Below are positions 4,292 through 21,847 of a stretch of 64,000 bases of DNA, piece by piece. A program made the translations under genes and the position numbers. Numbering within the stretch: the first letter of the stretch is position 1; each line of letters begins with the position of its first letter. Origin of the DNA: Escherichia phage 121Q. The notes under the pieces are model-generated. The model was not told the origin of the DNA. It saw only the letters and a program-made list of their open reading frames with translations, and did not search any database. The DNA is taken from the sequence record NC_025447.1; one strand, given 5' to 3'.

Positions 4292-4619
4292 TACATTTGA
4301 TATTAATAAGTTAAGAGAATGGTTTTATAGTATTGAAATTGAAGCCATCCCGTATCATAGATATGAACAATATAATTTAACCAGTATTGATATCAGTGAG
4401 TTGTACGCGTATTATCAAAGTGCATTAGAGATGCATAAGTTATTTTTGAGTACAGATTTTGTTCTAAATTACAATTTTGAGGAATTTAATAATTATAATT
4501 TAGTACAGAAATATGTAGTAGCAAAGTATATGTACCTTCAAGGAATTACAAGTAATTTGGAATTCAATACAGTCCTTGCTTTAGTTGAGGTAATTTTATG
4601 CAGTACATGTATGATTTAG
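4278..4619 (+). CDS. hypothetical protein
   Basis: 113 aa ORF, overlaps neighbours by a few nt; no family motif seen. Confidence 0.45.
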   Translation: MKLNNTFDINKLREWFYSIEIEAIPYHRYEQYNLTSIDISELYAYYQSALEMHKLFLSTDFVLNYNFEEFNNYNLVQKYVVAKYMYLQGITSNLEFNTVLALVEVILCSTCMI

Positions 4620-5104
4620 AGTTCAGCTTAGATGCTGCATTTAAATATGTTCACAAGATAGAAACAATATACAGTACATTATGTGCAATACAATCAGTAT
4701 CATCTGAGTTTGATGTTGGTGAAAAATATCAGGTATGGAATAATACATTTCTAAACAAAGAACGTTGCTCTACGGGGTTTAATATTTTAACATTTAATCC
4801 CAGCAATTGTTACCCAGAGAAGCATGAACGTTATCCGAATGACGACATGTGGTTTGATTACACAAAAGATGGTGATATGTCATCCCTTGTAGTTCCTGAT
4901 GATTTTAATGCCGAAGATTTAACGGAAGAGTGGTGGTTTCAACAGAATTTAGTACACGATGATATTGATTTATTTTTTTATGTAGTATTTAAAATGCTTT
5001 ACCACAACAATATATTAAAAGATAGTGTGTTTTTTTCATGTCTATATATTGATGATTTGTACAATGAAATCCAAATCAACATTCCCAGCACGCCTGTATC
5101 GTAA
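4598..5104 (+). CDS. FQxS-core family protein
   Basis: core TEEWWFQQNLVHDD. Confidence 0.6.
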   Translation: MQYMYDLEFSLDAAFKYVHKIETIYSTLCAIQSVSSEFDVGEKYQVWNNTFLNKERCSTGFNILTFNPSNCYPEKHERYPNDDMWFDYTKDGDMSSLVVPDDFNAEDLTEEWWFQQNLVHDDIDLFFYVVFKMLYHNNILKDSVFFSCLYIDDLYNEIQINIPSTPVS

Positions 5105-5129
5105 GATATGGGCTTTTTTCGTTTTGGTA

Positions 5130-5158
5130 TTGACAAAGAAGTGCAAAGCTGTTATCAT
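5130..5158 (+). promoter_or_regulatory. sigma70-like promoter
   Basis: TTGACA, 17 nt, TATCAT upstream of AAGGAG RBS. Confidence 0.5.
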
Positions 5159-5186
5159 GTGTAATCATTTTAAAGGAGAACATATA

Positions 5187-5687
5187 GTGAGTTTCATAAT
5201 CCCAAGTACATACGAAGATGCATCAAGTGCAGTTCATAAGATTCATTATATTTTTAATTTAATTATTAGATCTGCAAAAATTAAAATGTATGCACCTCTT
5301 GTGACAAATAATCGAAATGAAGAAATTTTTATTAGCACAGACAAAATTATTTTTCCATATTTCAATGAAGATAGATTGTGGTTCATACATTTAGCTGCAT
5401 TACAAAAATATAAGATGTCAATTCGTAATAATTTGGTTATACCGTTATATCATCCCGATATTGGAGAGGATGAGTATTTTCAGTACAGCACAGTACACCA
5501 CCATGAAGATATCTTTGCTGCTATGCTTATTGCTAAATTGAACACCGTTGATTTGGAGCAGTACAAATACAATAATAAATCATGTAAGATCATAATCCCT
5601 GCATTCATAGCTCTTTATGATTATGTGGTGCATAACAAAAAAGATGATACATATGCTTTCAATGAAGAGTATTTGAATTTTTTTTAA
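5187..5687 (+). CDS. FQxS-core family protein (GTG start)
   Basis: AAGGAG 8 nt upstream of in-frame GTG at 5187; core GEDEYFQYSTVHHH; ORF-track start at 5025 would run through the promoter. Confidence 0.55.
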   Translation: MSFIIPSTYEDASSAVHKIHYIFNLIIRSAKIKMYAPLVTNNRNEEIFISTDKIIFPYFNEDRLWFIHLAALQKYKMSIRNNLVIPLYHPDIGEDEYFQYSTVHHHEDIFAAMLIAKLNTVDLEQYKYNNKSCKIIIPAFIALYDYVVHNKKDDTYAFNEEYLNFF

Positions 5688-5696
5688 GGAGAACAT

Positions 5697-6224
5697 ATGA
5701 GCAGTGACGTGCAGAAATCAATGACATTCAATGAAATTGGTGCATTTAAAGATAAGATCATTGATTGTCTTGAATACATGATTTGTAGTAATATCGAAAG
5801 TATCGAGATATTTAACAAGACAAATCGCTCTTACCATATGATGTACATTGCAAACAATAATGGTATCATTCCATTTATTTCGGATAGTACAATATGGTAC
5901 GCATGTGATACGAAAAAAACCACAATAGGTTTACATTTATTTGAGACACATTATGATCTAATTATTCCTGAACATTGTATGCAAGAAGAAGAATATTTTC
6001 AAATGCAATGTATACATTCACCATTAGTGTTGTTTAGTTTATATATTATACCTTATATCACCAAATGTGTTCATGAGAATAAAGCTCCGTGGAATCATGA
6101 ATTTGTATCGTTGAAGTTATTGTATAATGTATTAGTAGAATATTATGATTACAGGCACAATGGTACAATCAGTGATGTATGGGATTTTGAATCGCTAAGG
6201 GTGAAAACATACACAGGTGAATGA
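5697..6224 (+). CDS. FQxS-core family protein
   Basis: AAGGAG RBS; core QEEEYFQMQCIHSP. Confidence 0.65.
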   Translation: MSSDVQKSMTFNEIGAFKDKIIDCLEYMICSNIESIEIFNKTNRSYHMMYIANNNGIIPFISDSTIWYACDTKKTTIGLHLFETHYDLIIPEHCMQEEEYFQMQCIHSPLVLFSLYIIPYITKCVHENKAPWNHEFVSLKLLYNVLVEYYDYRHNGTISDVWDFESLRVKTYTGE

Positions 6225-6840
6225 TATGACCAGAATTAAAATGTATGATTTGATGCAGTACAGTAAAATTGCCATTCCAGTGCTTAATAAAGTGCTGGAT
6301 GCATTCATTGCCAAATACCCTGAGAATTCAGTGTTATGTATTCCATTTAGTGTTCCAGATAAAGATGATATATTCCAAGTGAATGTCAGTACACGTGGTA
6401 TTACATTGCAGCAGAAATACATGGATACGGAATATTATGGAATAAAGTTGGATTCAGTACAGGGTTCAAAATCAGCCTATGATTTTTTTGTTCCTAATAA
6501 TATAGAGTCATGGGAAACAAACATTTCAAAGAAAGATGAAAATGATGTTCCTATTAGTGGTGTGTTCAACAATAAAGTTTTTTATTATTACGAAACCGAC
6601 AAATTCCCTGAAGAGTTATATTACAATTCAGAAATGAGTGAGGATATAGATGCATTCATGTTTCAATTATCTTTAGTACATGATATCATTGATGTTCAAG
6701 AGTTAAGAGCAGAAATCAATTTAGCTAAAGAGTTATCGGACATGCTGCCACCGTTTAGTATGCTTTTTTGTGAAGGAGGTTATTTTTCAAAAGAAGTGTT
6801 TGAACATTTCGTAGATGTTGTAAAAGGGTTGGATATATAG
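6217..6840 (+). CDS. FQxS-core family protein
   Basis: core DIDAFMFQLSLVHD. Confidence 0.6.
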   Translation: MNDMTRIKMYDLMQYSKIAIPVLNKVLDAFIAKYPENSVLCIPFSVPDKDDIFQVNVSTRGITLQQKYMDTEYYGIKLDSVQGSKSAYDFFVPNNIESWETNISKKDENDVPISGVFNNKVFYYYETDKFPEELYYNSEMSEDIDAFMFQLSLVHDIIDVQELRAEINLAKELSDMLPPFSMLFCEGGYFSKEVFEHFVDVVKGLDI

Positions 6841-6841
6841 T

Positions 6842-7036
6842 ATGCTTATAATTGATATTAAACAAAAATACCGTAAGTTTGATTGGTTCACCGATAGTTT
6901 CCAGCTTGAATTATTACATATGAATATCAGTGAAACATTATGTGCAGAAACACAAGATGAATTTGATGATAGAGTGATGAACATAGTAATGCTTTCTTGC
7001 TTTAAACATTTTGGTTATTTTTTCGGACAGAATTGA
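6842..7036 (+). CDS. hypothetical small protein
   Basis: 64 aa ORF tightly following upstream stop. Confidence 0.4.
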   Translation: MLIIDIKQKYRKFDWFTDSFQLELLHMNISETLCAETQDEFDDRVMNIVMLSCFKHFGYFFGQN

Positions 7037-7045
7037 GGTAAAAAA

Positions 7046-7561
7046 ATGCATCAACACAAGCATCATTCATATGATTTTGCAATTAACATTATGAAGTTCA
7101 TTCGAGCGTTGGAGGATGGGAAGCTTAGTCATAAGTACAGGAAAGAGGGTAACAATTGGTTCAGAAATGATTCCGAGTTCAGTTGTCATAAAATCGTGTA
7201 TAGTAATCAGTACAGTGCCAATTACCTACAAGATGTAGTGATGTGTTTTGAATACGTGTTGCAGTTCAGGGGTTCAATCCAAGATGAGTTGATGGAGAAC
7301 ATGTACATCCGATACCTTCCAATGCTCAAAGATGAAAATGTATTATTAAATTCAATATACCAACGAGTTCGTGAAATTGAGTGCAGGGATATATTAGATA
7401 CAGAAGAATCGTATTTCCAGCATTCCCTGATTTATTCACCTGATTTATTACAGGTACATAATTTGTTTAATACATTACGTCAGAACATCAGTACAGACAT
7501 ATTTTTGTCATTATCGGATTATGATACATTTGTCAAAGATTTAGAGGAAATAGGTTTATGA
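7046..7561 (+). CDS. FQxS-core family protein
   Basis: core TEESYFQHSLIYSP. Confidence 0.6.
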   Translation: MHQHKHHSYDFAINIMKFIRALEDGKLSHKYRKEGNNWFRNDSEFSCHKIVYSNQYSANYLQDVVMCFEYVLQFRGSIQDELMENMYIRYLPMLKDENVLLNSIYQRVREIECRDILDTEESYFQHSLIYSPDLLQVHNLFNTLRQNISTDIFLSLSDYDTFVKDLEEIGL

Positions 7562-7899
7562 GTCGATTTTCGGTTTGTGTGGTAAACATAAAAAGTGATG
7601 GTAGTTTAATTGAATTAGATGTATATGATGATGATAATGCATATGGTATTAAAGTACAGGACAATGATGTGCAGTTCAGTTCAAGAACAAATTTTGAAAA
7701 TCCAGTCCAAGTTCCTAATTTCATAGAAGATGAAGCAGCACGTTTCCAATACGAAACGGCATATGACAATGTACATATGCATATTATTATGCAACAAAGT
7801 TTAGTTCAATTAGTTCCTTTGTTCAGACAAAATATATATGTACATGAATTGTCGATCAATGACGTTCGCAGTTCCGTATTGTTCGATACAAATATGTAA
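7558..7899 (+). CDS. FQxS-core family protein (divergent)
   Basis: core DEAARFQYETAYD. Confidence 0.55.
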   Translation: MSRFSVCVVNIKSDGSLIELDVYDDDNAYGIKVQDNDVQFSSRTNFENPVQVPNFIEDEAARFQYETAYDNVHMHIIMQQSLVQLVPLFRQNIYVHELSINDVRSSVLFDTNM

Positions 7900-7909
7900 G
7901 GAAAGTACA

Positions 7910-8461
7910 ATGAGTTCAATGAGTTTATTAGATACATTAGAAAAAGACAGAAGTGCAATTAAGCGTTTAAAAGAGCAAGTACAAAAGATTGTATACAACG
8001 TTGATAAGTTTGAAGTCCCAGGAAGATTTGGTGATATTTCCCATACGGAGATCAAATCCCTTAAGTCAGATTTGTTGATTAAAAATAAAAATGGGTTGAT
8101 TTTAGTTTTGAGTTCAGATATGATGGGGGCAACACATAGTTATAATGCAGTATCGGTGCGTTCCGAGTGTGAAGGTATATATCTATCACAGGGTTTCAAT
8201 AGCGAGACACAGGTTTGTTTTTGTGATGCAGTACATGATCCTATGAAGTTCACGAGAAGTGAAGCCCAAGCGTTATTAGAGCTATCAGACGAGAGTTTGT
8301 TTCAGTACAGTACAATGTATGACAATGATAAGCTTCGTTGTATGTACGCTGTAAAGCATTATACACAGGAGTTTTCTGGATTTGCATACCTTTTAGTTAG
8401 AACCAATACCAGATATATTGATATGTTAGAAGATTACATCGATAAAGTTGTTAATGTATGA
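7910..8461 (+). CDS. FQxS-core family protein
   Basis: ATG at 7910 after AGGAAAG; core SDESLFQYSTMYD. Confidence 0.6.
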   Translation: MSSMSLLDTLEKDRSAIKRLKEQVQKIVYNVDKFEVPGRFGDISHTEIKSLKSDLLIKNKNGLILVLSSDMMGATHSYNAVSVRSECEGIYLSQGFNSETQVCFCDAVHDPMKFTRSEAQALLELSDESLFQYSTMYDNDKLRCMYAVKHYTQEFSGFAYLLVRTNTRYIDMLEDYIDKVVNV

Positions 8462-8615
8462 TTTTGTGATGGGATGATGCTAATGAAAGAGTTATTTGAA
8501 GATCAGTTCAATACATATGTGGATAATATTCTTTATTCCAGTCGTGCCAGTCAACGAGGAAATCGTGCTTACAATATTGATTACCTATTGGTGGTGCTGA
8601 GTTCACAGTACACCA

Positions 8616-8846
8616 ATGCGGTACAAAGGGTTTATTATGAAAAGTGCAAGTAATAGTGATATTGCAAAGGAGAAGTTTAAGTGCAGTTTAGATTACGGTT
8701 TAAATGATTTTCTTACATGCACAATGTACAGGAATGATGATTATGAGCAATCCGTAATTTCGTTGCACAGATATTTCGAAATAATTTACGCAAGATATCT
8801 TAGAAGGTTAGAGGGAATAGGGGATTGGAATTATGATTACGTTTGA
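8616..8846 (+). CDS. hypothetical small protein
   Basis: 76 aa ORF; start uncertain (alternative ATG at 8637). Confidence 0.4.
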   Translation: MRYKGFIMKSASNSDIAKEKFKCSLDYGLNDFLTCTMYRNDDYEQSVISLHRYFEIIYARYLRRLEGIGDWNYDYV

Positions 8847-9069
8847 AGAACCAGAAACAATGAGTCCATATACGATGAAAGGTTTTGAATTCATGATGGA
8901 TTCGATTTTGAAGAATTCGTGTTTAGTACACAATCCTGAGCGTGCAACAGTGAGGGAATATCAGGACAATGCATTACAGCGTGTAATGAATATGTACAGG
9001 AATACGAGTCGCAAGCTTTGTGCGTTGAAAAGGATTGAAGAAATCAAGGTTTCTAGGCTGAATAAATAG
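8833..9069 (+). CDS. hypothetical small protein
   Basis: 78 aa ORF overlapping upstream gene end. Confidence 0.4.
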   Translation: MITFEEPETMSPYTMKGFEFMMDSILKNSCLVHNPERATVREYQDNALQRVMNMYRNTSRKLCALKRIEEIKVSRLNK

Positions 9070-9268
9070 AGACGTTTCATTTTGACAGGCCGCAGGGGGG
9101 GTCAAAAAAATTTCCGCTGAAAAACATGCTAAGGTATATGTTTAATATAAAGTTTTATATTGTGTTTTTCAGAGTACAGTTCATGTTTCCTGAAACAAAA
9201 AAAATACCCCGCCACCGAACGTGCTCTTTATATTGGAGTTTACCTTATTAATTATAGTAGAGATTAAG

Positions 9269-9646
9269 ATGGAAATAAAATATAATGAATTTTGTGCAAG
9301 GACATGGATGTACACTGGTGAGTTAGTTACGCACTCTAACTTATACAAGGGTGATTTAAACTACGCCAGGGACAAGATTTTAAAGTACTGGAATGCTGAC
9401 TTTTATTTGATGGATTTTAGTACTGGGTTTAGGGGTAAAGCAACCGAGATGTTGGACTATACAGTACTTGATGATGCTGCACTGTTTCAGGAGGCATTAG
9501 TATTTGATAAGAAGTACATCTGTACATTAGAAGAGATGATTGAATTACAGCGTAGAATTAAATGTATTCACAGGGAATGTATAGATATCTGGTGCAGTAC
9601 TGGTGAAGATAATTTTTGTAATCATTTCAATCTAGGGGAAGTGTGA
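9269..9646 (+). CDS. FQxS-core family protein
   Basis: ATG at 9269 (ORF-track start 9221 is GTG with no RBS); core DDAALFQEALVFDKKYICT nearly identical to 10235 and 10588 genes. Confidence 0.55.
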   Translation: MEIKYNEFCARTWMYTGELVTHSNLYKGDLNYARDKILKYWNADFYLMDFSTGFRGKATEMLDYTVLDDAALFQEALVFDKKYICTLEEMIELQRRIKCIHRECIDIWCSTGEDNFCNHFNLGEV

Positions 9647-9870
9647 TGGAATTTGATTTTTTAATATCAGTACATACGGTCAAGGGTGCACCTCAGTACC
9701 TTTGTAATTTAAACAAAGGTGATTTGATTATGGATACAGATACAGAGGTTGTATACAGTTCTAATGTTCTGTGCAAGGAATTTCAGAATTCGAAAATGCT
9801 TGAGTTATTGTGCATTGCTGATTGTAATATTCTGTACAAATTCAGTACTAATCTGAAGGAGATTTTATGA
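9643..9870 (+). CDS. truncated FQxS-family paralog (N-terminal module only)
   Basis: N-terminus MEFDFLISVH...CNLNKGDL matches the 10235 gene but the ORF ends before the FQxS core. Confidence 0.45.
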   Translation: MMEFDFLISVHTVKGAPQYLCNLNKGDLIMDTDTEVVYSSNVLCKEFQNSKMLELLCIADCNILYKFSTNLKEIL

Positions 9871-10235
9871 AAAAAGAAATTAGAATCCAATTCGGTATGA
9901 GGAAAAAAGAGGTCATCTGTACACTGAATCATGCGGACGTGGAAATGGGTGGTGCATTACAAAAATTCTCACATTTTGTTCTTGTACTATATGAAAATGG
10001 GTCTTTTAAAATCTTCACATATGATGATTCAAAAAATTACCGTAATGATTTTGTAAATCTTACAGTACTGTCAGAAGAGGAATTCTTTCAGGAAAGTACT
10101 GTCTGGAATTTACAAGGAGCACCAATTGAATACGTCCGTGCTACACAGGTAGAGATGATCAAAACAATGCAGAACTATCCAGAAGATTATATGACTAAGT
10201 TTCATGAATCTTTTAATGTAGAGGTTGAGTACTGA
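9867..10235 (+). CDS. FQxS-core family protein
   Basis: core SEEEFFQESTVWN. Confidence 0.6.
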   Translation: MKKEIRIQFGMRKKEVICTLNHADVEMGGALQKFSHFVLVLYENGSFKIFTYDDSKNYRNDFVNLTVLSEEEFFQESTVWNLQGAPIEYVRATQVEMIKTMQNYPEDYMTKFHESFNVEVEY

Positions 10236-10591
10236 TGGAATTTGATTTTTTAATATCAGTACATTCTTTTAAGCACAGTTTTCAGTACTTTTGTAATTTA
10301 AACAAAGGTGATTTAATGCACAGTGCGAATGAGTATATTCATTTTACTGATGGTAAATTCTCATTTATTGATTACAGTTCATTAGATTTTCCATACACTG
10401 ATATGCCGGACTATACATTGATGGATGCTGGTGAACTATTTCAAGCTGCATTAGTATTTGACAAGAAGTACATCTGTACATTTGAAGAAGTAATTACTAT
10501 ACAAAATGAAATGAAGGTGTATGCATCGTTGAATAAACCTAATGAATGTATTAATCAAGAATACAAATTCAATATAGGAATTCCAAAATGA
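10235..10591 (+). CDS. FQxS-core family protein
   Basis: core DAGELFQAALVFDKKYICTFEE. Confidence 0.6.
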   Translation: MEFDFLISVHSFKHSFQYFCNLNKGDLMHSANEYIHFTDGKFSFIDYSSLDFPYTDMPDYTLMDAGELFQAALVFDKKYICTFEEVITIQNEMKVYASLNKPNECINQEYKFNIGIPK

Positions 10592-10947
10592 CATATGATT
10601 ATTCTATGTACTATTATAAGTTACCTAAAGGATGGGACTTGTGCTGTAATCTTATTAAGGGAGACTCGGAACATGAGTTGAGTTTATATATGCACTACAA
10701 AGATTCTTGTTTTAAATTTATTCATGTATTACATGATGGCTATGACTATGAATCTGAGAGTCTTATAGATTATACAGTACTGGACGATGGTGAACTATTT
10801 CAGGAAGCATTAGTGTTTGATAAGAATAAGTACTCCTGTACATTTGAAGAAATGGTTTCTTTGCAAAATGAAATGAAGAGATTTGAAAAAGAAAACGTAT
10901 TTAATCCATCCCCATCAAGAACGAATAATTATTATTTCAATATATGA
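10588..10947 (+). CDS. FQxS-core family protein
   Basis: core DDGELFQEALVFDKNKYSCTFEE. Confidence 0.6.
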   Translation: MTYDYSMYYYKLPKGWDLCCNLIKGDSEHELSLYMHYKDSCFKFIHVLHDGYDYESESLIDYTVLDDGELFQEALVFDKNKYSCTFEEMVSLQNEMKRFEKENVFNPSPSRTNNYYFNI

Positions 10948-10956
10948 GATTATAAA

Positions 10957-11451
10957 ATGACATTACAGAGTTCATTGGAAAAAGCAAAGAAGATTCATGA
11001 GTACATGAATATGGTAAAAGAAGGTTCAGTTTACGGTGTTTTCAAAGACACAAGTACTCAATATTATGTGCCAGATAACCTCCTTTATAATGACTGCTCA
11101 GATACAGAAACGTGCGTACTGGATACAGAAACGTGTGTACTGGATACCGACCCTAATGATTATGAATGTTTCATTGATATGCATAATGAGTACATGGTCT
11201 ATATTAATGATGCAGATATTACCATATACAGTACTGACTGCGATTCCGATGACATTATAATTCCGAGTGAAGTACTAGAAGGTCAGTGGGATAGTGAAGA
11301 GTATTACTTCCAACAAAGTACTGTTTACGATGATGAAGTACTTGATGTTATTATAATTATGTGGTACTTTAAAAGTATTGGTTCTGGGAACTTCTATTTC
11401 GATTACAAATACGTAAAGAAAACTGTAGATAACGGTATTAACAGGTGTTGA
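10957..11451 (+). CDS. FQxS-core family protein (tandem subfamily copy 1)
   Basis: N-terminus MTLQSSLEKAKKIHEYM and C-terminus SEEYYFQQSTVYDDEVLDVIIIMWYFKS; contains in-frame 21-bp tandem repeat. Confidence 0.65.
   Translation: MTLQSSLEKAKKIHEYMNMVKEGSVYGVFKDTSTQYYVPDNLLYNDCSDTETCVLDTETCVLDTDPNDYECFIDMHNEYMVYINDADITIYSTDCDSDDIIIPSEVLEGQWDSEEYYFQQSTVYDDEVLDVIIIMWYFKSIGSGNFYFDYKYVKKTVDNGINRC
11101..11142 (+). repeat. 2 x 21-bp tandem direct repeat inside a CDS
   Basis: gatacagaaacgtg[c/t]gtactg twice, encoding DTETCVL DTETCVL. Confidence 0.7.
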
Positions 11452-11452
11452 A

Positions 11453-11923
11453 ATGAGTTTAGAAAGAGCATTAGAGATTGCGAAGTTAATTGATTTATGC
11501 AGCAAAGAAATTGTATCAAATTGTCTCAATGGATATCTATTCAAGGAAGGTAAATCATATTGTCGAATGATATACGATGACAGTAGTGAATATATCCATA
11601 TGTATGAAGAAAACTTAGATTCTTCTGAAACAACACTCAATGGGTGTGATGTTAATTTGGAAGATAATTACATGTACTTCTGTCGTGATGCTGATATTTT
11701 AATACAAGATTCTGACATTCTAACTGGTGGTGAAGAGAAACATCTTCCGTATTCAGTACTGGATAATAACTGGGGTAGTGAAGATTACTATTTCCAGCAG
11801 AGTACTATATATAATGAAGATATACTTGACAAACTTGTTATTTCTTGGTACTTTCATAACACGGATTATAGTAGCTTCTACATAGACTTGGATCTACTAA
11901 GAGTACTTAAAGAGGATATATGA
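11453..11923 (+). CDS. FQxS-core family protein (tandem subfamily copy 2)
   Basis: core SEDYYFQQSTIYNEDILDKLVISWYF. Confidence 0.65.
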   Translation: MSLERALEIAKLIDLCSKEIVSNCLNGYLFKEGKSYCRMIYDDSSEYIHMYEENLDSSETTLNGCDVNLEDNYMYFCRDADILIQDSDILTGGEEKHLPYSVLDNNWGSEDYYFQQSTIYNEDILDKLVISWYFHNTDYSSFYIDLDLLRVLKEDI

Positions 11924-12360
11924 GTTTAGAAAAAGCACTAGAACTAGCCAACAAAATACATCAGTACCATGATAAAATAAAAAGTGGGTTCTATGCTGAT
12001 AAAGTACATGCATATGGGAATGAATATTACCTCACTGGAGTAAAGAGATACTCTAATGATATTTTACTTATGGGTCATGATAAAGACAATAATATACAGT
12101 ACTCTTCATGTAGTCAATATACTAGTTTTATGGTATATATTCCTGGTACTAAGATTACTTTTGACACATCAAATACACCTGTTGACTTCGAGGTACTTGA
12201 TGGCCCGTGGGGTACTGAAGAGTATTACTTCCAACAGAGTCTCATTTTTAACCAAGAAATGCTTGATTCCTTGGTTGTGTTGTGGTACTTTAAGGAATTG
12301 AATTTTGAACCATTCTTTCTTGACTGGGGATCATGTGAGTATTTAATTTCAGGGGAATAA
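11920..12360 (+). CDS. FQxS-core family protein (tandem subfamily copy 3)
   Basis: core TEEYYFQQSLIFNQEMLDSLVVLWYF. Confidence 0.65.
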   Translation: MSLEKALELANKIHQYHDKIKSGFYADKVHAYGNEYYLTGVKRYSNDILLMGHDKDNNIQYSSCSQYTSFMVYIPGTKITFDTSNTPVDFEVLDGPWGTEEYYFQQSLIFNQEMLDSLVVLWYFKELNFEPFFLDWGSCEYLISGE

Positions 12361-12362
12361 TA

Positions 12363-12851
12363 ATGTCATTACAAAGTGCGTTGAAAGAAGCAAAGAAGAT
12401 TCATGAGTACATGATTATGGTACAGGAAGGTTCAGTACCAGGTGTATACAAAACATCAGATACGGAATTCTTCGTTAAGGATAGAGATGATTATGACGAT
12501 TCAGAGGTATGTGCAGAAACATTAGTACTGCACACTGATACTGGTGACAGTGATAACTGTGAATATCATATGTACAATCAGTACATTAGTTATTGCCGTA
12601 ATGAAGATATTACCATCTACAACACAGATAGTGATGCTGATGACACTATCATTCCTTATTCAGTTCTGGAAGGTCAGTGGGATAGTGAAGAATATTACTT
12701 CCAGAATAGTACTATCTACAATGAAGAAGAACTGGATGTTATTGTGATTATGTGGTATTTCAAAAGTATTGACTCCAGTAGTTTCTATTTTGATTATGAA
12801 TATGTAGAGAATACAGTAGGAGAAGGTAATGTCATTACAAAGTGCTCTTGA
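12363..12851 (+). CDS. FQxS-core family protein (tandem subfamily copy 4)
   Basis: N-terminus MSLQSALKEAKKIHEYM; core SEEYYFQNSTIYNEEELDVIVIMWYFKS. Confidence 0.65.
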   Translation: MSLQSALKEAKKIHEYMIMVQEGSVPGVYKTSDTEFFVKDRDDYDDSEVCAETLVLHTDTGDSDNCEYHMYNQYISYCRNEDITIYNTDSDADDTIIPYSVLEGQWDSEEYYFQNSTIYNEEELDVIVIMWYFKSIDSSSFYFDYEYVENTVGEGNVITKCS

Positions 12852-13281
12852 AAAAGCAAAAGAACTACATGGATACTTTGAAGATATAAAGGCCGGAAAG
12901 TTCAAAGAAGTGTACAAAGCCGAGAACGGTAACTACTACAAAGATGAAATGTATAATAACTCCGTTGGTGTAAGGGTTATTCTTGGGTTGAATTCCAATA
13001 GCCCAGTGTCGTATTCGGAATACAATAGAGATGCAGAATTCATTAGTTATGTTGAAAATGGTAGCATTCGTTTTATTAATAGACAAAAACCATTAACATT
13101 GAATTGTGAAGTACTGAATGGTCCGTGGAATAGTGAAGAGTATTACTTCCAAAACAGTACTGTATATGATGATGAAGTACTTGAAGCATTAGTTATTATG
13201 TGGTACTTCAAGAGTGTTAGCTGTCCTCGATTTTATTTGGATTTCGAAGATCTTCGTAAAGTACCAGAAGGTATAGAATGA
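12829..13281 (+). CDS. FQxS-core family protein (tandem subfamily copy 5)
   Basis: core SEEYYFQNSTVYDDEVLEALVIMWYFKS. Confidence 0.65.
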   Translation: MSLQSALEKAKELHGYFEDIKAGKFKEVYKAENGNYYKDEMYNNSVGVRVILGLNSNSPVSYSEYNRDAEFISYVENGSIRFINRQKPLTLNCEVLNGPWNSEEYYFQNSTVYDDEVLEALVIMWYFKSVSCPRFYLDFEDLRKVPEGIE

Positions 13282-13592
13282 AAAACTTATTCAGTGTTCA
13301 GTACGTTCCTGGTGAAATTGGTTTATTGTATCTATTTGACCATGATAATTCATTATTACTAGTAGTGAAGAAATGCCAAGCTAGTTCGTTTGTTGAATAC
13401 ATTCACGATAGTGAATACATTCCTGATTTCCTAGAGTGTGATTATCACGATGAACATGAATCATTTATTTTTCAGGAATCACTCGTATGGGATAAATCGA
13501 TCAACTTCTTTACGTTAATTGAATTACAAAAGCAGGTGAAGTATTATTGGGATTACTTAATTACACAGGATTACATTGAGATTGAAACATAA
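13278..13592 (+). CDS. FQxS-core family protein
   Basis: core HESFIFQESLVWD. Confidence 0.6.
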   Translation: MKNLFSVQYVPGEIGLLYLFDHDNSLLLVVKKCQASSFVEYIHDSEYIPDFLECDYHDEHESFIFQESLVWDKSINFFTLIELQKQVKYYWDYLITQDYIEIET

Positions 13593-13900
13593 TGACAAAA
13601 AATGAATTTGATTCACTTTGTACGGTTTATAATTCATTGACAGAAATACCTGACTTTATTAATTACATTTCAGCTTTAAATCAAATTATGAATAGTTTTG
13701 AACAATCGTTTGAAGAGAAATATGCAGGTAGAAAAGTTCTATGTCATATGTCAATGTACTTGGGAGATGGTGAGCCTTACACTACCAGTACTACATGTGA
13801 AATAAAAAAATATAATATATTATTGGGCACAATAGAATTCACAGTATCCAATGGTGGTAGTTATATGTACTTTAGAGATGGAGTGGTTGAATTATTATGA
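13592..13900 (+). CDS. KYxG-V family small protein
   Basis: 102 aa; EEKYAGRKVLCH motif shared with small proteins at 45-49 kb. Confidence 0.5.
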   Translation: MTKNEFDSLCTVYNSLTEIPDFINYISALNQIMNSFEQSFEEKYAGRKVLCHMSMYLGDGEPYTTSTTCEIKKYNILLGTIEFTVSNGGSYMYFRDGVVELL

Positions 13901-14346
13901 GTTACGAAAGTGCAATCAAGAAAGCAAATGATATTCTAAAAGTTGTTCAGTTCTTCAAAGAAAATCCTGAATACTTAGCTGATGAAAACCATGATCACGA
14001 TGAGAGATTGAGACGAAAAATTGTCGCTTTATTTGACACTAATGCGGATAATTATAGTCTAATTGAGTTAGCATACGATTATATTTCATTGAACCGAAAC
14101 GGACATTTAGTTAATATAGAAAGACATGCGAGTGAAGAATCTTTTAAAATTTCAGACATTTTATCCCTGAGTACTGAAGAAGGGTACTTCCAGGGTAGTA
14201 CTGTTTATGAACAAGGAACACTTGACAATCTATGCACATTCAGTGTAATATATCAGAAATCAGTACTGGATGTATTTTATCTTGACACTGCTGAACTGGA
14301 TACACTAATCAATTTTGTTACTACTGAAGAGGCCACATTTGAGTGA
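13897..14346 (+). CDS. FQxS-core family protein
   Basis: core TEEGYFQGSTVYE. Confidence 0.6.
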   Translation: MSYESAIKKANDILKVVQFFKENPEYLADENHDHDERLRRKIVALFDTNADNYSLIELAYDYISLNRNGHLVNIERHASEESFKISDILSLSTEEGYFQGSTVYEQGTLDNLCTFSVIYQKSVLDVFYLDTAELDTLINFVTTEEATFE

Positions 14347-14879
14347 TGAAAGTTAACATCAATGACTTTGATGCATTACAAGATTTATCAAAAAAGATTC
14401 GCATAATCGTACCAGTACTCAAAAAATGCAGTACTGGTTTAATTGATCCTAGTACTGTTGTTAATGAGAAGTACAATTTTCATCGTGTATTACAGGGTAC
14501 AGGTGCATTTCAGAAGTGTGATGTACGTGAGAAACACGTAATTGATACATCATTGTTTTCTATTGGTGCACCTGTGTCGAATAATTCTATTTTCCTGGAT
14601 AACGCAGGAAATATTCAACAATTAACATTTAAGAAAAGGAAAAAGAACAATAACATTGGTGTGTACGCGATGAAGTGGGGTCAACCTGATTTGAAGCGTG
14701 AAATTCACATCCCTAAGTACAATTACAATGCATTTGACGAACAGTGTTTTCAACTATCGTGTACTGACCCTGACTATGCAATCATTCAGTTCTATATGGA
14801 ATTGCAGATAGCATTTAACAGTAATTTATATATTAACTTGTTGGCAATGAACATCGATGAAGTATTCAAAAACATTTAA
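14343..14879 (+). CDS. FQxS-core family protein (divergent)
   Basis: core DEQCFQLSCTDPD. Confidence 0.5.
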   Translation: MMKVNINDFDALQDLSKKIRIIVPVLKKCSTGLIDPSTVVNEKYNFHRVLQGTGAFQKCDVREKHVIDTSLFSIGAPVSNNSIFLDNAGNIQQLTFKKRKKNNNIGVYAMKWGQPDLKREIHIPKYNYNAFDEQCFQLSCTDPDYAIIQFYMELQIAFNSNLYINLLAMNIDEVFKNI

Positions 14880-15075
14880 TCGAATTGAATACATGAGAAC
14901 TGTGAGTGCAGTGTGGGACATATGGTTCACTACTAAACCAAAAATGGATTACCATGACTTTAAGCTCTTGTTCTTCGTTGGCTCTAACAAACAGGATGTT
15001 GCAATGAAGGGTTATATTCAGCACTTACAGGAACTAATACAGAAGAGGGTTAATGAAAATAATAGACCAAGATGA
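14857..15075 (+). CDS. LGT-QE family small protein
   Basis: core LFFVGSNKQDVAMKGYIQHL. Confidence 0.55.
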   Translation: MKYSKTFNRIEYMRTVSAVWDIWFTTKPKMDYHDFKLLFFVGSNKQDVAMKGYIQHLQELIQKRVNENNRPR

Positions 15076-15244
15076 TATTGCTAAACTATTCAATATATAT
15101 TCTACTAGAATGATGCAAACAGACTCATATAGTACTGAATTCAAAGAGTTGAAAGTACTGATGTACTTGGGAACCCAATATCAGGAACAAGTTATTTTGG
15201 AATATATTAATTCGTTGAAGAAGGATATCCGTTATGTACGATGA
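15053..15244 (+). CDS. LGT-QE family small protein
   Basis: core LMYLGTQYQEQVILEYINSL. Confidence 0.6.
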   Translation: MKIIDQDDIAKLFNIYSTRMMQTDSYSTEFKELKVLMYLGTQYQEQVILEYINSLKKDIRYVR

Positions 15245-15794
15245 TTTAGATCTTGCGTTTGAACGTATGGTAATTTTAATGCAATGTGCAGAAATGCATG
15301 AAACAATCCGTCGCACCAAAGGGATTGAATATACAAGTAAACTATTCTCATACGAAAGTCGTCGAGGGATGGATCATTTTTACTGCACTGATTGTTCAAA
15401 GTTTTCAGTACTGAAATATTATCATCCTACTGTTTCCAATAATAGTTTAATATCCACATATGACGGTGATCTGTTTAGTGTAATGTATGACACATTACAT
15501 CCATCAATTTCAATCTATAAAGATTGCGATAGTAGTTTATCGTATATAATTGAAGATTACTTATCTCCTAATACTGAAGAGAATATTTTTCAGAACAGTG
15601 TGTTGCATGATGAATTAAGTATAAAATGCATCTATATGTTCAATAAGTTAAAAGAGTACGCCGATAATAATTACTTCATTGATGATTTAGCGGTATTGTC
15701 TGTTTCCGTTTTTAATACAAATGATATTGATATGAAATACTATAATGAGATTTGTAAAGTACATCATATGTATAAGGAACTATTATGTCAATAA
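15234..15794 (+). CDS. FQxS-core family protein
   Basis: core TEENIFQNSVLHD. Confidence 0.6.
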   Translation: MYDDLDLAFERMVILMQCAEMHETIRRTKGIEYTSKLFSYESRRGMDHFYCTDCSKFSVLKYYHPTVSNNSLISTYDGDLFSVMYDTLHPSISIYKDCDSSLSYIIEDYLSPNTEENIFQNSVLHDELSIKCIYMFNKLKEYADNNYFIDDLAVLSVSVFNTNDIDMKYYNEICKVHHMYKELLCQ

Positions 15795-16387
15795 ATGCAA
15801 ATAAATGTTGTAGTGCAGATGTGCATTTGTTTTTTAAGAAATTAGCAAATGATATTATATATATGCAGGAAATGATTTATCACAAACGAGCGGATTTAGA
15901 AAAAGCATTAGTACAGTTCTCATTTATGCTTGATGGTGATATATTTCTAGAGAGTGATGCATTGCAAATAGTATTAGACAAAAATGCTAAAAGATTTTTA
16001 TTTCATATAGATAATAAATTATGTTCCTCCGTATGTCGTACTTTTTATAATCGTGATTCGGACTTATATCAATTCCTTTATTCTAAAGGTGCAGTAGAAG
16101 CATCATATGGTGATGGTTATGCCCTAGGAAAGAGTATTCCATTTATGAAATCATTTAAAATAGAACACATCAGTACTGATGAAGATGCAATGTTCACAAA
16201 TGATATAACTATGGGACGTGAAGATGCAATGCGATATATTACAAATTCTATGCATACATTCTTTCAACGAACAGAATTTGATAATGTATATATATCAAAT
16301 GTAAATATTTTCAATGACCTGTGTCAGTACTTGAGAAGTGTTTGTAATTTCGATGAAAGCTATTGTAAGCTATATACTGAGGTATAA
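15785..16387 (+). CDS. hypothetical protein (possible divergent FQxS member)
   Basis: 200 aa ORF; only a weak HTFFQRTEFD match to the family core. Confidence 0.45.
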   Translation: MSINANKCCSADVHLFFKKLANDIIYMQEMIYHKRADLEKALVQFSFMLDGDIFLESDALQIVLDKNAKRFLFHIDNKLCSSVCRTFYNRDSDLYQFLYSKGAVEASYGDGYALGKSIPFMKSFKIEHISTDEDAMFTNDITMGREDAMRYITNSMHTFFQRTEFDNVYISNVNIFNDLCQYLRSVCNFDESYCKLYTEV

Positions 16388-16392
16388 AACAA

Positions 16393-16755
16393 ATGAACAC
16401 ATTAAGTATTACATACTATACAACTAAAAAATTAGTTACTTGTTTAATATCTTTGAAGACAAACCATGATGATATGTTTGATATGGCTGCATATGAATTA
16501 GAATTATCAGAAGATGGCTTCAAGAGCTATGAAGTATATAGCTATGTCCGTGAAGATGTAATTGACACTACACTAATGCAAGAGGATGAGTTATTCCAAG
16601 AAAGTTTAGTATGGGATAATAAGTACGATTGTAACTTTGATTTCTTATGTTTAATCCAGAAAGAAATGAAAAGAATCTTTGATAATTATCCAATCAAACG
16701 TTTCAGTACTGCACCTGAGCAATATAAAAGGATTATATTCACCTATGAAGATTGA
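16393..16755 (+). CDS. FQxS-core family protein
   Basis: core QEDELFQESLVWD. Confidence 0.6.
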   Translation: MNTLSITYYTTKKLVTCLISLKTNHDDMFDMAAYELELSEDGFKSYEVYSYVREDVIDTTLMQEDELFQESLVWDNKYDCNFDFLCLIQKEMKRIFDNYPIKRFSTAPEQYKRIIFTYED

Positions 16756-17122
16756 ATTTGAAGTTATTACATATAGTATAGGTGATGGTATCCGTTGCTA
16801 TGTACAAGCAAGGCATATGGTTCCTGATGATAAACTGTCACCCAAAAGCTTCTGTATCACACAAGATCTCTTAGATATCAACGGAGAGTACAAGTACATA
16901 TATTATCTTACTAAGGGTTATTGTAGTACACGTGGTTTTAATATTGTAGCTGTTTCTAGAGATGAAATTGATGATTTAACTGAGTACGGGGAAGAAGAGA
17001 TGTTCCAGTACAGTACTGTTTTTAATGAACTGGATGTGTTTCTGTTACGAAAAATACAACACATTATGCAAGAATGTTTGCATCATAAGAGAGGTATGGT
17101 ATGCGACGTGAATCTGAATTAG
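16745..17122 (+). CDS. FQxS-core family protein
   Basis: ATG at 16745 overlapping upstream stop; core GEEEMFQYSTVFN. Confidence 0.6.
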   Translation: MKIEFEVITYSIGDGIRCYVQARHMVPDDKLSPKSFCITQDLLDINGEYKYIYYLTKGYCSTRGFNIVAVSRDEIDDLTEYGEEEMFQYSTVFNELDVFLLRKIQHIMQECLHHKRGMVCDVNLN

Positions 17123-17442
17123 TTAAAGTAATGTACGCTACTCATATTAAACTACTACTTGTTAAATTTGATTATAATAAAAAACATAATGATTTCTATA
17201 CTTTAATTCGTGATGAAAATACATTCTCCTTGCGATGCAACAATATACCCTTGAAGATAAATGATTTTACTTCACTTGACGAGGGGGAATTATTTCAAGA
17301 ATCATTAGTTTTTAATAGTAATATAAAAATTGATATAGAAGTTATTAAAAAATACCAGATTCTATTGAACAAAATTATGAATTGTTATCCATGTGAAATA
17401 GGTGGTCATATGCAGTTCAAATCAAAAATGTATGAATTATGA
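17101..17442 (+). CDS. FQxS-core family protein
   Basis: core DEGELFQESLVFN. Confidence 0.6.
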   Translation: MRRESELVKVMYATHIKLLLVKFDYNKKHNDFYTLIRDENTFSLRCNNIPLKINDFTSLDEGELFQESLVFNSNIKIDIEVIKKYQILLNKIMNCYPCEIGGHMQFKSKMYEL

Positions 17443-17449
17443 GGTTTAT

Positions 17450-17986
17450 ATGTTAGATAAAAAAATGAACTCTGGAACCCAATATAATCATCTTAAGTTG
17501 GATACATTCGAATCAGCTATCAGTACAGCACAAGATATAATTGATATTATCAAGTTCATTAAAGAAGATAAGTTCAAATGTTTGAAAATACTAAATCGTT
17601 CAATGTACCGTGATAAAAATATTCATGTATCAGTACGTAGACCGAAAGATCAAGAAAGTGGGAGAGATTTCTATAACAACAGTGAGCAGTTCGAATGTGA
17701 ATATGATCCAGAATTTAGAGGTGGTTTCATGTGTTACTGTATGAAGGATACCTCACACATTGAGATACGTTCATCGAAAGGTGGCATACGTACATTAGAG
17801 TTTATTGATATAGTTTTAAATCAGGAATACTACTTTCAACTATCATTATTGTTTCCTGCATACGATTTAGGAGTTCTATTCATGTATAAGTACTTTCATG
17901 AGCACTGGAATGAAGACTTCTATCTGGACTTAGAAGATTACCAATTAGTTTGGAAAGAAATGGTAGAACTTCGCAACCCATCTTGA
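17450..17986 (+). CDS. FQxS-core family protein
   Basis: ATG at 17450 after GAGG; core NQEYYFQLSLLFP. Confidence 0.6.
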   Translation: MLDKKMNSGTQYNHLKLDTFESAISTAQDIIDIIKFIKEDKFKCLKILNRSMYRDKNIHVSVRRPKDQESGRDFYNNSEQFECEYDPEFRGGFMCYCMKDTSHIEIRSSKGGIRTLEFIDIVLNQEYYFQLSLLFPAYDLGVLFMYKYFHEHWNEDFYLDLEDYQLVWKEMVELRNPS

Positions 17987-18012
17987 CACCCTCCGATTCT
18001 TTGTGATATAAT
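17983..18012 (+). promoter_or_regulatory. sigma70-like promoter with extended -10
   Basis: TTGACA, 18 nt, TGaTATAAT; sits in the gap before the 18046 gene. Confidence 0.55.
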
Positions 18013-18045
18013 CTCTTTATATTAATTGTAAAGGGTTATATCACA

Positions 18046-18522
18046 ATGTCCAAAGACCTATCATTTAGCAATGCACAAAAAATAGCAAAAGACATTATCA
18101 GGGTTTATAAATTCCTTACAAATGTTACTGAAGATTTTTCCGTGGGCAAACATACAGTCAAAAAACGAAATGGATACCTTTCCTTTATGGATGGGTTACT
18201 CTATAGTTCAGATGAATCAACTTGTAGTATTAGAGTGCTTGATGAAGTACCAAGTGGTGATTTTATTTCATACCATTTCCCAAGTTCAGATAATTTCAAA
18301 TACTACAATCATCATCTTATAAATGAAGGATTTGATACGGCTGAAATTAACACTGAAGAAGAGTTCTTCCAGTACAGTACTGTGTATCCAGAGAGGATTG
18401 TTTTCAGTTCAGTGATTTACACTGCCCTTAAAAATGAACTAAATTCAGATAGTGATCATTTCTACTTGGACCTGAACAATCTCGATTGTATTATTGAGTA
18501 CCTGGAGAAAAATGGTTTATGA
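18046..18522 (+). CDS. FQxS-core family protein
   Basis: core TEEEFFQYSTVYP. Confidence 0.65.
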   Translation: MSKDLSFSNAQKIAKDIIRVYKFLTNVTEDFSVGKHTVKKRNGYLSFMDGLLYSSDESTCSIRVLDEVPSGDFISYHFPSSDNFKYYNHHLINEGFDTAEINTEEEFFQYSTVYPERIVFSSVIYTALKNELNSDSDHFYLDLNNLDCIIEYLEKNGL

Positions 18523-19013
18523 TTACTACAGAATATGATTACGATGGTGTTTTAGAATTTGCAGACAATATCTATCGCATTGCAAAGGAGTTCAGAAGTC
18601 CTGACCCATTTGGTGGTATGTTCGAATACGATGAGTTTAGTTCATCCAAAGGAAGACTTGCGTTTACTAATGAAAGAGGTAATCAAATCTATGCCGAGTA
18701 CTTTGATGACAATGACTTTCATTACAAAGCCGGATACATTTCATATTGCCCTGGGTCTGATTTGAAGATTAATATTGACAATTATAGAGAAGCAGTATTT
18801 GTTAAGTATGATGATTTAGTGTTCATGTCAGAGGAAATGTACTTTCAGGGTTCTTGTATTCATGATGTAAAAGTACTTAATGCTATGTTATTTTATGGTG
18901 CACTACTTCATCATTACAAATACAAACAACGATTCTTTTTAGATTTAGTAGTATACTATAAATGCGTGGATTATTTGAATGCAAAATACGACAACAATTC
19001 AGTACATGACTGA
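18519..19013 (+). CDS. FQxS-core family protein
   Basis: core SEEMYFQGSCIHD. Confidence 0.6.
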   Translation: MITTEYDYDGVLEFADNIYRIAKEFRSPDPFGGMFEYDEFSSSKGRLAFTNERGNQIYAEYFDDNDFHYKAGYISYCPGSDLKINIDNYREAVFVKYDDLVFMSEEMYFQGSCIHDVKVLNAMLFYGALLHHYKYKQRFFLDLVVYYKCVDYLNAKYDNNSVHD

Positions 19014-19341
19014 TGGTACTGAATACTTTGTTTCAAGATATGTAATCAGACACAATCATTATGTAACCTATATTCCAGAATACAATCAATTTTATATCCA
19101 GATTTATCAAGACAATGGAAAGATAAATGATATATATTCAGAAATAAAAATCCCTGATTATAGTACTTTATCAGAAGAGGAATTGTTTCAGCAGAGCACT
19201 ATCAGTACTGAAGATGTGTACAAAATAATGGAATACCAGAAGGTACTTAAATATTTTCATGAAGTACAGGATATACAAATAGATATTCTTACTGCGTGGA
19301 GTTATATCACACACGAGGTAAATTATGTTCGAAATGATTAA
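19006..19341 (+). CDS. FQxS-core family protein
   Basis: ATG at 19006 overlapping upstream stop; core SEEELFQQSTIST. Confidence 0.55.
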   Translation: MTDGTEYFVSRYVIRHNHYVTYIPEYNQFYIQIYQDNGKINDIYSEIKIPDYSTLSEEELFQQSTISTEDVYKIMEYQKVLKYFHEVQDIQIDILTAWSYITHEVNYVRND

Positions 19342-19738
19342 AATTATGCAACGATGTGTTGTTGACCAACACGGGATATATGGATATCGTTTAAGTGCTC
19401 CTATTGACAAAAATAAAACAACCTATGTAAGCTATAATGCTGTACAAGGATTTGATATATTCATTAGTACTAATTATCAAATCAATCAAGCTAAAGATGT
19501 GTCTATAATGACCCCTGATGAGTTATTTCAGTACAGCTTAGTCTTTCCTTCATGTATCGATTTACAACGTCTAGGAGCGATACAGAAGGTTTTACGCGAA
19601 CATAAAGTACAACCCAATAAAGTCACACACATTCCAGAAACAATCTTCAAAACCATAGAAGTAGAAACTCCTGATTATATGTTAAGTGATGATGAGTACT
19701 ACGAGAAACACTTCCCTGGTAAAGTTTGGAGAGATTGA
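19325..19738 (+). CDS. FQxS-core family protein
   Basis: core TPDELFQYSLVFP. Confidence 0.6.
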   Translation: MFEMIKIMQRCVVDQHGIYGYRLSAPIDKNKTTYVSYNAVQGFDIFISTNYQINQAKDVSIMTPDELFQYSLVFPSCIDLQRLGAIQKVLREHKVQPNKVTHIPETIFKTIEVETPDYMLSDDEYYEKHFPGKVWRD

Positions 19739-20229
19739 TGAACCGAAAGTACAGAGAAACTATGAAGTTCGCTAGGGAGTGTTTAGAAGTGTTTGAGTTC
19801 ATCAATGCTCATAAAGATTTACTCCATAGATACATTGCAATCAGTGAGACAGATGACCATAGGTACATATGTTCTCGAATTCAAGATAAGATATATAAGA
19901 TTGTGTTCTCGGAAACATACACAGATACATCTAATTCACTATATGATTTTGCACGTACTGATTACGTTTCATACAAATCTTGGTCTGATAGTATTAAAAT
20001 TGTGCACAAGCAAAATACATTTTATTCTTTTCTTACGGACATTTCCGAAGAAAGTTACTTTCAAAACAGTTTAATTTATACAGAAAAAGAACTCAAAATG
20101 TTATATATTATGTCGTACTTTAAAAAGTACTGCAAATTTAATACATTATCTTTTGAGATTTCTGCAATGAAAGTATTCATTAAAAATGTAAAAGAACTAA
20201 AGAGGGCTTTTAATGTACATAGAAAATGA
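19738..20229 (+). CDS. FQxS-core family protein
   Basis: ATGA overlap start at 19738; core SEESYFQNSLIYT. Confidence 0.6.
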   Translation: MNRKYRETMKFARECLEVFEFINAHKDLLHRYIAISETDDHRYICSRIQDKIYKIVFSETYTDTSNSLYDFARTDYVSYKSWSDSIKIVHKQNTFYSFLTDISEESYFQNSLIYTEKELKMLYIMSYFKKYCKFNTLSFEISAMKVFIKNVKELKRAFNVHRK

Positions 20230-21826: not shown

Positions 21827-21847
21827 AGACCCGTATGGGTCTTTTTG
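21827..21847 (+). terminator. rho-independent terminator
   Basis: AGACCC-gtat-GGGTCT hairpin followed by TTTTT. Confidence 0.6.

Follow-up and report, generated by a model that had tools for sequence, protein, structure and literature searches.

An array of >30 similar genes in Escherichia phage 121Q was noted earlier and interpreted as the result of tandem duplication (Hua et al. 2017, mBio, PMC5646251), an observation repeated in a 2026 review (PMC13282480). The original account consists of one sentence, without coordinates, gene numbers, family definition, structure or function, and the family stands in the literature as noted and uncharacterised. Tandem head-to-tail copies arising from recombination between repeats are likewise known from genomic accordions, such as those of poxvirus K3L and of T4 tifA versus toxIN (bioRxiv 10.1101/2022.04.14.488369), in which near-identical copies differ in number from one close isolate to the next. 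Here, we analysed five tandem genes (c1–c5, labelled 5′ to 3′, positions 10957–13281) within a 64,000-nucleotide stretch of phage 121Q (NC_025447.1), referred to below as the window. In contrast to accordion copies, c1–c5 share 46–72% nucleotide identity, are saturated at synonymous sites and are fixed in number within the species. They belong to a family of ~35 co-oriented, tightly packed genes, old and well diverged, that is kept by giant E. coli and Klebsiella phages. The array in the window is probably the one of Hua et al., the match being by genus and member count only (~34 open reading frames (ORFs) here), and the interpretation as tandem duplication is the same.

Age and maintenance of the five-gene block

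The window derives from a jumbo coliphage of the genus Asteriusvirus (PBECO4/121Q-like); its G+C content is 32.7% and small ORFs on the + strand fill it. Region 9200–14400 matches 34 phage records, all from jumbo phages of E. coli or Salmonella that belong to the genus or are close to it. The nearest by nucleotide comparison are vB_Eco_slurp01 (97%) and PBECO4, phAPEC6 and G17 (~94%). The homologous region of ten relatives was taken for ortholog comparison.

Consistent with the first-pass annotation of this DNA, whole-length alignment identifies the five consecutive, co-oriented genes as true paralogs that originated by tandem duplication. They have common ends, namely an N-terminal helix (MSLxxALxxAxxI) and a C-terminal module (VLxGxW-[ST]EEYYFQxS...WYFK...FYxD), and a variable, indel-rich middle. 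All five match phrog_9317 (E 1e-57 to 1e-67, profile positions 1 to 155–159 of 160) and cross-match related PHROGs. Self-comparison of nucleotides 9200–13600 yields 15 off-diagonal high-scoring segment pairs, the best of which are 70–85% identical, against 0 in 20 codon-unit shuffles, so that the likeness lies at the DNA level and goes beyond a short motif; c1 and c5 have a common stretch of 114 nt that is 85% identical. The copies are nevertheless not near-identical, as had been proposed, since protein identity amounts to 29–39% in nine of the ten pairs and to 61% for c1/c4 (codon-aligned nucleotide identity 46–56% and 72%, respectively). Nor is their C-terminus almost identical, with 42–75% amino-acid identity in the C-terminal module, compared with 32–73% in the first 22 residues and 11–25% in the middle (50% for c1/c4).

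Synonymous sites place the duplications far back. The proportion of synonymous differences (pS) among c1–c5 is 0.60–0.88, which is saturated, c1/c4 having a pS of 0.60 and a synonymous divergence (dS) of ~1.2. Inside the conserved C-terminal module, pS is still 0.53–0.87 for all ten pairs, indicating that the shared ends are held by selection on the protein and not by recent copying or conversion. A neighbour-joining tree built from 49 copies (11 genomes) places every copy with the orthologs at the same position, and neither beside its genomic neighbours nor by genome; c1 and c4 form the youngest sister pair. Orthologs are 84–98% identical at the protein level within the PBECO4 species clade. 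The c1–c3 proteins show 82–95% identity to their counterparts in PBECO4, SP27 and A4, and c4 95–98% in PBECO4 and SP27. Identity is lower where the slot holds a different allele (c5 69–71% in SP27, WPEC3 and ph0011; 60% for the c4-like gene of A4).

Purifying selection acts on every copy. The ratio of non-synonymous to synonymous divergence (dN/dS) between orthologs is 0.05–0.42 for all pairs but c1 versus A4 (0.68), and the corresponding ratio of proportions (pN/pS), summed over all phage pairs, is 0.27 for the N-terminal region, 0.31 for the middle and 0.21 for the C-terminal module. All regions are thus constrained, and the middle of each paralog stays distinct from the others; at 0.31, no diversifying selection is seen on this variable part. 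Of the ten relatives, nine have intact c1–c5 ORFs wherever the slot exists. The order c1–c5 is conserved in all six of the PBECO4-clade relatives, with c1 disrupted in the SD-1_S14 record, and differences in copy number are confined to more distant lineages (WPEC3 and ph0011 have no c1; A4 has no c5). The in-frame 21-bp duplication reported in c1 is real; it is fixed in 7/7 PBECO4-clade genomes (the window, slurp01, PBECO4, phAPEC6, E9.1, SP27 and SD-1_S14) and single-copy in A4. Taken together, positional orthology and purifying selection imply that the duplications predate the genus, a description of the evolution of the block that we regard as highly probable.

The disrupted c1 of the Salmonella phage SD-1_S14 (locus L003, positions 3700–4186) is split and annotated as two short ORFs; several neighbouring genes of this 310-kb record are fragmented too, and the disruption may reflect a sequencing or assembly error and not true decay. 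Two antisense ORFs of the window, 11275–11640 (−, 121 aa) and 12660–12917 (−, 85 aa), run antisense to the stretches that encode the homologous C-terminal parts of c1 and c4, and this position alone explains their mutual likeness; it is almost certain that neither is a gene.

Three other accounts of the block's history can be weighed against these data. A recent amplification, as first suggested, would mean that unequal crossing-over raised gene dosage lately and that copy number is in flux. The genes are indeed tandem, co-oriented and directly abutting, and nucleotide-level repeats are detectable; however, identity and synonymous saturation are those of old copies, the copies group by position across ten phages, each of the five has its own ortholog in every PBECO4-clade genome examined, each is under purifying selection with its own conserved middle, and the 21-bp duplication is fixed in the clade. 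The claim of recency is therefore rejected, and we consider such an event highly improbable. Gene conversion or module shuffling that homogenised the termini while the middles drifted would account for the first 22 codons of c1/c4 (pS 0.30, including an identical block of 27 nt), for a c4-like patch at the 5′ end of A4's c1 and for the 85% stretch in c1/c5. The c1/c4 5′ end is the sole hint of conversion among the five genes. Within each of seven genomes, however, identity of that end is the same (0.80–0.83), and both genes retain the 27-nt block from phage to phage, so there is no ongoing homogenisation or concerted evolution. On this constancy and on the region-wise synonymous divergence of the C-terminal module, conversion is rejected as the source of the conserved ends; the tree, moreover, is strictly positional, and homogenisation of the termini appears improbable overall. 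Finally, the genes might be non-functional leftovers of duplication, junk DNA in an enlarged capsid, in line with the proposal of Hua et al. that duplication serves to fill larger capsids (PMC5646251); ORF 9643–9870 is clearly a remnant, and c1 is disrupted in one record. The intact and constrained ORFs, the conservation of the family between genera and the confident fold predictions for both of its forms make this reading barely credible.

The wider array and its remodelling

The five genes delimit the family too narrowly: a sixth long-form copy lies downstream of them, and the family extends over ~0.8–29 kb of the window (Table 1). A profile of c1–c5 finds seven more window ORFs, and an iterated hidden Markov model (HMM) search gathers 34 ORFs, all on the + strand, between 771 and 29186. 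Plain BLASTP separates them into a long-form family of 13 members, including c1–c5, and a short-form family of 13, including the subcluster upstream of c1. Both families carry the signature [ST]-E-E-x-x-F-Q-x-S, ~45–60 residues before the C-terminus. In the long family, F and Q are invariant and E, E and S are at least 90% conserved. The strict motif occurs in 28 + strand ORFs, against 0.5 expected in shuffled proteins, and in 0/84 minus-strand ORFs. Profile–profile comparison of the two families (hhalign) aligns only 17 columns, which correspond to the motif stretch (probability 72.6%, E 3e-5), and the iterated HMM joins them; homology of the long and short forms is likely.

The family is present beyond the genus. 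Similar tandem arrays are found in Klebsiella phage RaK2, with 17 and 12 members per 20 kb in two overlapping loci (L011 and L012, 100% identical to JQ513383), and in an uncultured jumbo-phage contig (L013), with 21. An exhaustive profile search recovers 114 representative clusters, nearly all of 100–200 aa, and none of the 114 shows a fusion of the family domain to a longer protein; those sampled belong to JNE01-like phages or to contigs, a few of which measure ~350 kb. A word-indexed search recovers 33 clusters, all from Asteriusvirus or E. coli assemblies, and tblastn with two distant members returned the same phages or nothing.

The array differs between lineages. In WPEC3 and ph0011, a short-form gene stands in place of c1, and the slot of the unrelated 13592 gene is occupied by a long-form paralog in SP27, WPEC3 and ph0011. 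A4 lacks c5, as mentioned above, and Turkey5 has a much more divergent set. In SP27, c1–c4 are of PBECO4 type and c5 onward of WPEC3 type, which places a recombination breakpoint between c4 and c5. The window and slurp01 have common c2/c3 alleles that are ~9–10% diverged in nucleotides from PBECO4, against ~4% for c1 and ~6% for c4 (c4 protein 97.5% identical), a pattern that points to exchange of an allele block within the species.

A further rearrangement lies in the upstream subcluster, whose shared LFQ[EA]ALVFDK motif is genuine; ORF 9643–9870 indeed carries the N-terminal ~28 residues alone of the 10235 gene, as had been noticed. Direct repeats of 85 nt bracket an insert of ~590 bp (segment 9643–10234), which the window, slurp01 and phAPEC6 carry and which PBECO4, E9.1, SD-1_S14, SP27, WPEC3 and ph0011 lack. 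Alignment to phages without it skips from 9728 to 10207/10233, and such phages hold one repeat copy. The matching stretch of A4 is located ~4.5 kb downstream of the A4 c1–c4 cluster and takes in all of A4_365 as well as the 3′ end of A4_364. The insert junctions fall at microhomologies (GATTTGAT on the left; on the right the stop/start overlap TGATGGA). This structure and its junctions identify ORF 9643–9870 as a chimera of the first ~28 aa of the 10235 gene and the last ~48 aa of an A4_364-like gene, and in slurp01 and phAPEC6 the same ORF has undergone a further 63-nt in-frame deletion between short direct repeats. The proposal of ongoing unequal recombination with module shuffling thus stands for the upstream subcluster and for the array at large, as the insert, the 63-nt deletion and the slot swaps testify, but fails for the c1–c5 block.

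In the left repeat copy of the window, positions 9675–9695 form a dense substitution patch (ACGGTCAAGGGTGCACCT versus TCTTTTAAGCACAGTTxT). The same stretch in slurp01 and phAPEC6 is of PBECO4 type, and the patch suggests a small secondary exchange in the window's lineage.

Two further groups of paralogs were observed in the window, all on the + strand. A third family of six ORFs of ~65–90 aa, arranged in adjacent pairs in the same array (104–319, 316–537, 1743–1958, 1928–2194, 14857–15075 and 15053–15244), is linked internally by BLASTP and not to the long or short families. Five consecutive paralogs of ~90–103 aa (36254–36529, 36526–36792, 36783–37094, 37105–37416 and 37379–37663) form a separate BLASTP cluster.

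Table 1. Positions of the array genes, sequence features and neighbouring genes in the window
Feature	Coordinates	Strand	Evidence
Full extent in the window of the co-oriented paralog array	771..29186	+	Iterated HMM; BLASTP; motif
Short-form member, LFQEALVFDK motif; first gene after gap 9070–9268	9269..9646	+	Self-comparison; BLASTP family
Chimeric remnant ORF	9643..9870	+	Comparison with relatives
Left copy of 85-nt direct repeat	9644..9728	+	83% identical to right copy, E 6e-21
Insert body, polymorphic among close relatives	9729..10232	+	92.5% identical to A4 locus L008 10485–11006
Short-form member carried by insert, 122 aa, EEEFFQES	9867..10235	+	PHROG match; motif census
Right copy of 85-nt direct repeat, 5′ end of 10235 gene	10233..10317	+	Self-comparison
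Short-form member, 118 aa	10235..10591	+	ORF list; BLASTP family
Short-form member, 119 aa; modelled representative of the short family	10588..10947	+	phrog_15629; AlphaFold (AF2) predicted local distance difference test (pLDDT) 87.9
c1, long-form member, 164 aa, isoelectric point (pI) 4.05; sister paralog of c4	10957..11451	+	ORF list; phrog_9317 E 1e-67; tree
In-frame 21-bp tandem duplication (DTETCVL x2), variable middle of c1	11101..11142	+	Tandem Repeats Finder (TRF), 2.2 copies, 96% match
c2, long-form member, 156 aa	11453..11923	+	ORF list; phrog_9317; tree
c3, long-form member, 146 aa	11920..12360	+	ORF list; phrog_9317; tree
c4, long-form member, 162 aa, AlphaFold-modelled	12363..12851	+	ORF list; phrog_9317
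Signature codons E109-E110-x-x-F113-Q114-x-S116 of c4	12687..12710	+	Alignment; motif census
c5, long-form member, 150 aa; start overlaps c4 end by 23 nt	12829..13281	+	ORF list; phrog_9317; tree
Short-form member, 104 aa, FIFQESLVWDK	13278..13592	+	ORF list; BLASTP family
Sixth, more distant long-form copy, 149 aa, phrog_12674	13897..14346	+	HMM E 1e-9; alignment
T4 Rnl1-type RNA ligase, and polynucleotide kinase/phosphatase (PNKP; kinase and HAD phosphatase domains), close together	41797–42939 and 44036–44968	+	
Sir2-family protein, PIN-PhoH fusion, two calcineurin-like phosphoesterases, ATP-dependent DNA ligase	60175–60927, 62165–63604, 48376–49134, 52634–53497, 51268–52686	+	

Predicted fold and candidate functions

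The products encoded in and beside the five-gene block are small (104–164 aa) and acidic (pI 4.05–4.8). Their genes overlap by 1–4 nt or abut and have ribosome-binding sites, an organisation that fits co-translation from long transcripts. The AlphaFold model of c4 (pLDDT 85.7, predicted template modelling score (pTM) 0.81) shows an N-terminal helix, a beta region of seven strands, the FQ helix, a long helix, a strand and a helix. The model of the short-form 10588 protein (pTM 0.84) has in common with it the order beta meander, FQ helix, long helix and strand, to which the long form adds an N- and a C-terminal helix. The motif of c4 is located in a short helix within the best-modelled part of the protein (block pLDDT ~96). 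Structure matches in BFVD are to proteins of 121Q, RaK2, GAP32, Serratia BF and Yersinia fHe-Yen9, all of them uncharacterised jumbo-phage proteins; a 124-aa RaK2 protein matches the long-form model with a target-normalised TM-score of 0.73. Searches of PHROGs gave matches solely to families labelled unknown function. No match to known defence or anti-defence families was found within PADLOC, Pfam and NCBIfam, which covers the content of those libraries only. The virion proteome of phAPEC6 (62 proteins, one study; PMC7247149 Table 1) has no entry from gp347 to gp549, and the array corresponds to gp427c–gp453c; as far as detected in that one study, the array products are not packaged.

In our explanation of the array, the evolutionary part is shown by the sequence comparisons above and the functional part is inferred. 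Tandem duplication built the family long before the genus Asteriusvirus diversified; the copies then diverged, mainly in the beta-rich middle, and purifying selection has preserved each of them as a separate gene. Remodelling of the array still goes on: segments are now and then inserted or deleted through microhomology, and co-infecting relatives recombine, with whole genes or blocks exchanged for other paralogs. The products would be small, acidic, soluble, non-virion proteins that combine a conserved scaffold (the N-terminal helix and the C-terminal helical module with EE-x-x-FQ-x-S) with a paralog-specific beta-sheet face. Most likely, each paralog would recognise a different host or defence component inside the infected cell, the conserved polar motif supplying a common contact or activity, and selection would then maintain the breadth of the panel and not the dosage of a single gene. 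The idea of a panel of intracellular binders for different host or defence targets is prompted by the conserved scaffold and polar motif, the conserved paralog-specific middle, the non-virion status and the lineage-specific swapping. We hold this functional reading as tentative, whereas the explanation as a whole, an old diversified family that serves as such a panel, is in our judgement reasonably probable.

Several observations weigh against the binder panel. No result bears directly on function, and no meaningful match was obtained in Pfam, NCBIfam, PADLOC (0 families) or a PDB sequence-profile search. A literature search found no expression-timing data for the genus; it likewise returned no transcriptomic or functional study of the region, and no paper that states what it does or to which expression class it belongs. 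Promoter-like sites are as frequent as in shuffled sequence (57 found versus 57.5 expected). The variable middle is not fast-evolving among orthologs, and hence gives no sign that an arms race is under way within the genus. The sequence link between the long and short families is limited to the 17-column motif, to which a similar predicted topology can be added. Lastly, the four conserved polar residues within eight positions could equally mark a catalytic site.

This last point is the core of an alternative in which the family consists of enzymes, EE-x-x-FQ-x-S being a catalytic or a metal- or nucleotide-binding site and the middle setting substrate specificity. The conservation of the polar residues in both families and in RaK2 speaks for it; however, no profile of any enzyme family is matched, the domains are very small, and a structural role of the motif is equally likely, given that it is located in a short helix of the best-modelled part and that S/T-E-E resembles a helix N-capping box. 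We consider an enzymatic family unlikely. About as unlikely is the reading that Rak2-like jumbo phages possess a modular adaptor system of their own, in which the motif module of all members would dock onto a single machine of host or phage (for example a protease, RNA polymerase or the ribosome) and the beta-sheet face of each paralog would bring a different host or defence protein to it. A role in virion assembly, as chaperones for tail fibres and whiskers or as minor packaged proteins, draws on the unusual richness of Rak2-like phages in fibre proteins (PMC7247149, PMC5259590), and chaperones would be expected to be absent from virions. Nevertheless, 0/62 phAPEC6 virion proteins map to the array, the array is not adjacent to fibre genes but sits among small non-structural and nucleic-acid repair genes, and no similarity to known fibre chaperones was seen in Pfam or PHROGs; this role is quite improbable.

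The signature also coincides with the recognition consensus of tobacco etch virus (TEV) protease, ExxYxQ(G/S), as in EEGYFQGS of the 13897 gene (14173–14196) and EEMYFQGS of the 18519 gene. A role of EExYFQ(G/S) as a protease cleavage site was set aside, the motif lying in a confidently modelled helix and no such protease being evident, and the likeness is treated as a coincidence. It could, however, confuse screens for vector contamination.

Scans for promoters and terminators did not delimit operons, with counts the same as in shuffles, and no RNA genes were found in the window. The sole sizeable non-coding gap nearby (9070–9268, 199 nt) contains a promoter-like site (TTGACA-18-AAAAAT, 9082–9111) upstream of the first short-form gene, and may be the start of an operon.

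Genes of recognisable function are located downstream in the window, among them Rnl1, PNKP, the DNA ligase, both metallophosphoesterases, Sir2 and PIN-PhoH (Table 1), a neighbourhood that we count in favour of the binder panel. Together, Rnl1 and PNKP make up the classical tRNA-repair pair, which acts against anticodon nucleases such as PrrC. A Sir2 encoded by a phage is noteworthy, given how common Sir2 domains are among bacterial defence systems. Countering of Prr is mentioned in the phAPEC6 paper (PMC7247149).

Comparison with known gene families

About 8% of a 350-kb phage genome is taken up by the array. It is conserved across genera, yet neither a curated family nor a solved fold matches its proteins. 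Being old and stably maintained, it is unsuited to the study of accordion-like adaptation. With its sharp signature, confident models and natural variants that differ in members, the family is instead a well-defined, testable target, and would make it possible to ask whether host-range or counter-defence functions are encoded in the gene-rich 'dark' regions of jumbo phages. If the adaptor reading were true, the phage would carry in the array a library of adaptors for substrates or targets, built on a fold unseen in solved structures, and the gene content of the array would help to set host range.

The earlier description of the genes as 'very similar' (Hua et al.) overstates their likeness, as most members in the window are detectable by profile or motif only. 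PHROGs keep apart phrog_9317 (c1–c5), phrog_12674, phrog_28549 and phrog_28680 (other long forms) and phrog_15629 and phrog_13866 (short forms); the link between these families, made here by motif and predicted topology, is absent from PHROGs. Acidic sheet-plus-helix binding platforms (p32/gC1qBP/Mam33 and MHC-I-like platform domains) are among the closest known systems. The multigene families (MGFs) 110, 360 and 505 of African swine fever virus and the host-range families of poxviruses, for which host-interaction roles are established, have no sequence or fold relation to the phage array, whose host is a bacterium and whose role is only proposed. Ancient duplication combined with turnover between lineages marks the phage array as well, and the resemblance extends to organisation: these families too form co-oriented blocks of diverged paralogs with a conserved scaffold and variable parts, undergo gain, loss and replacement between strains, and encode non-structural products.

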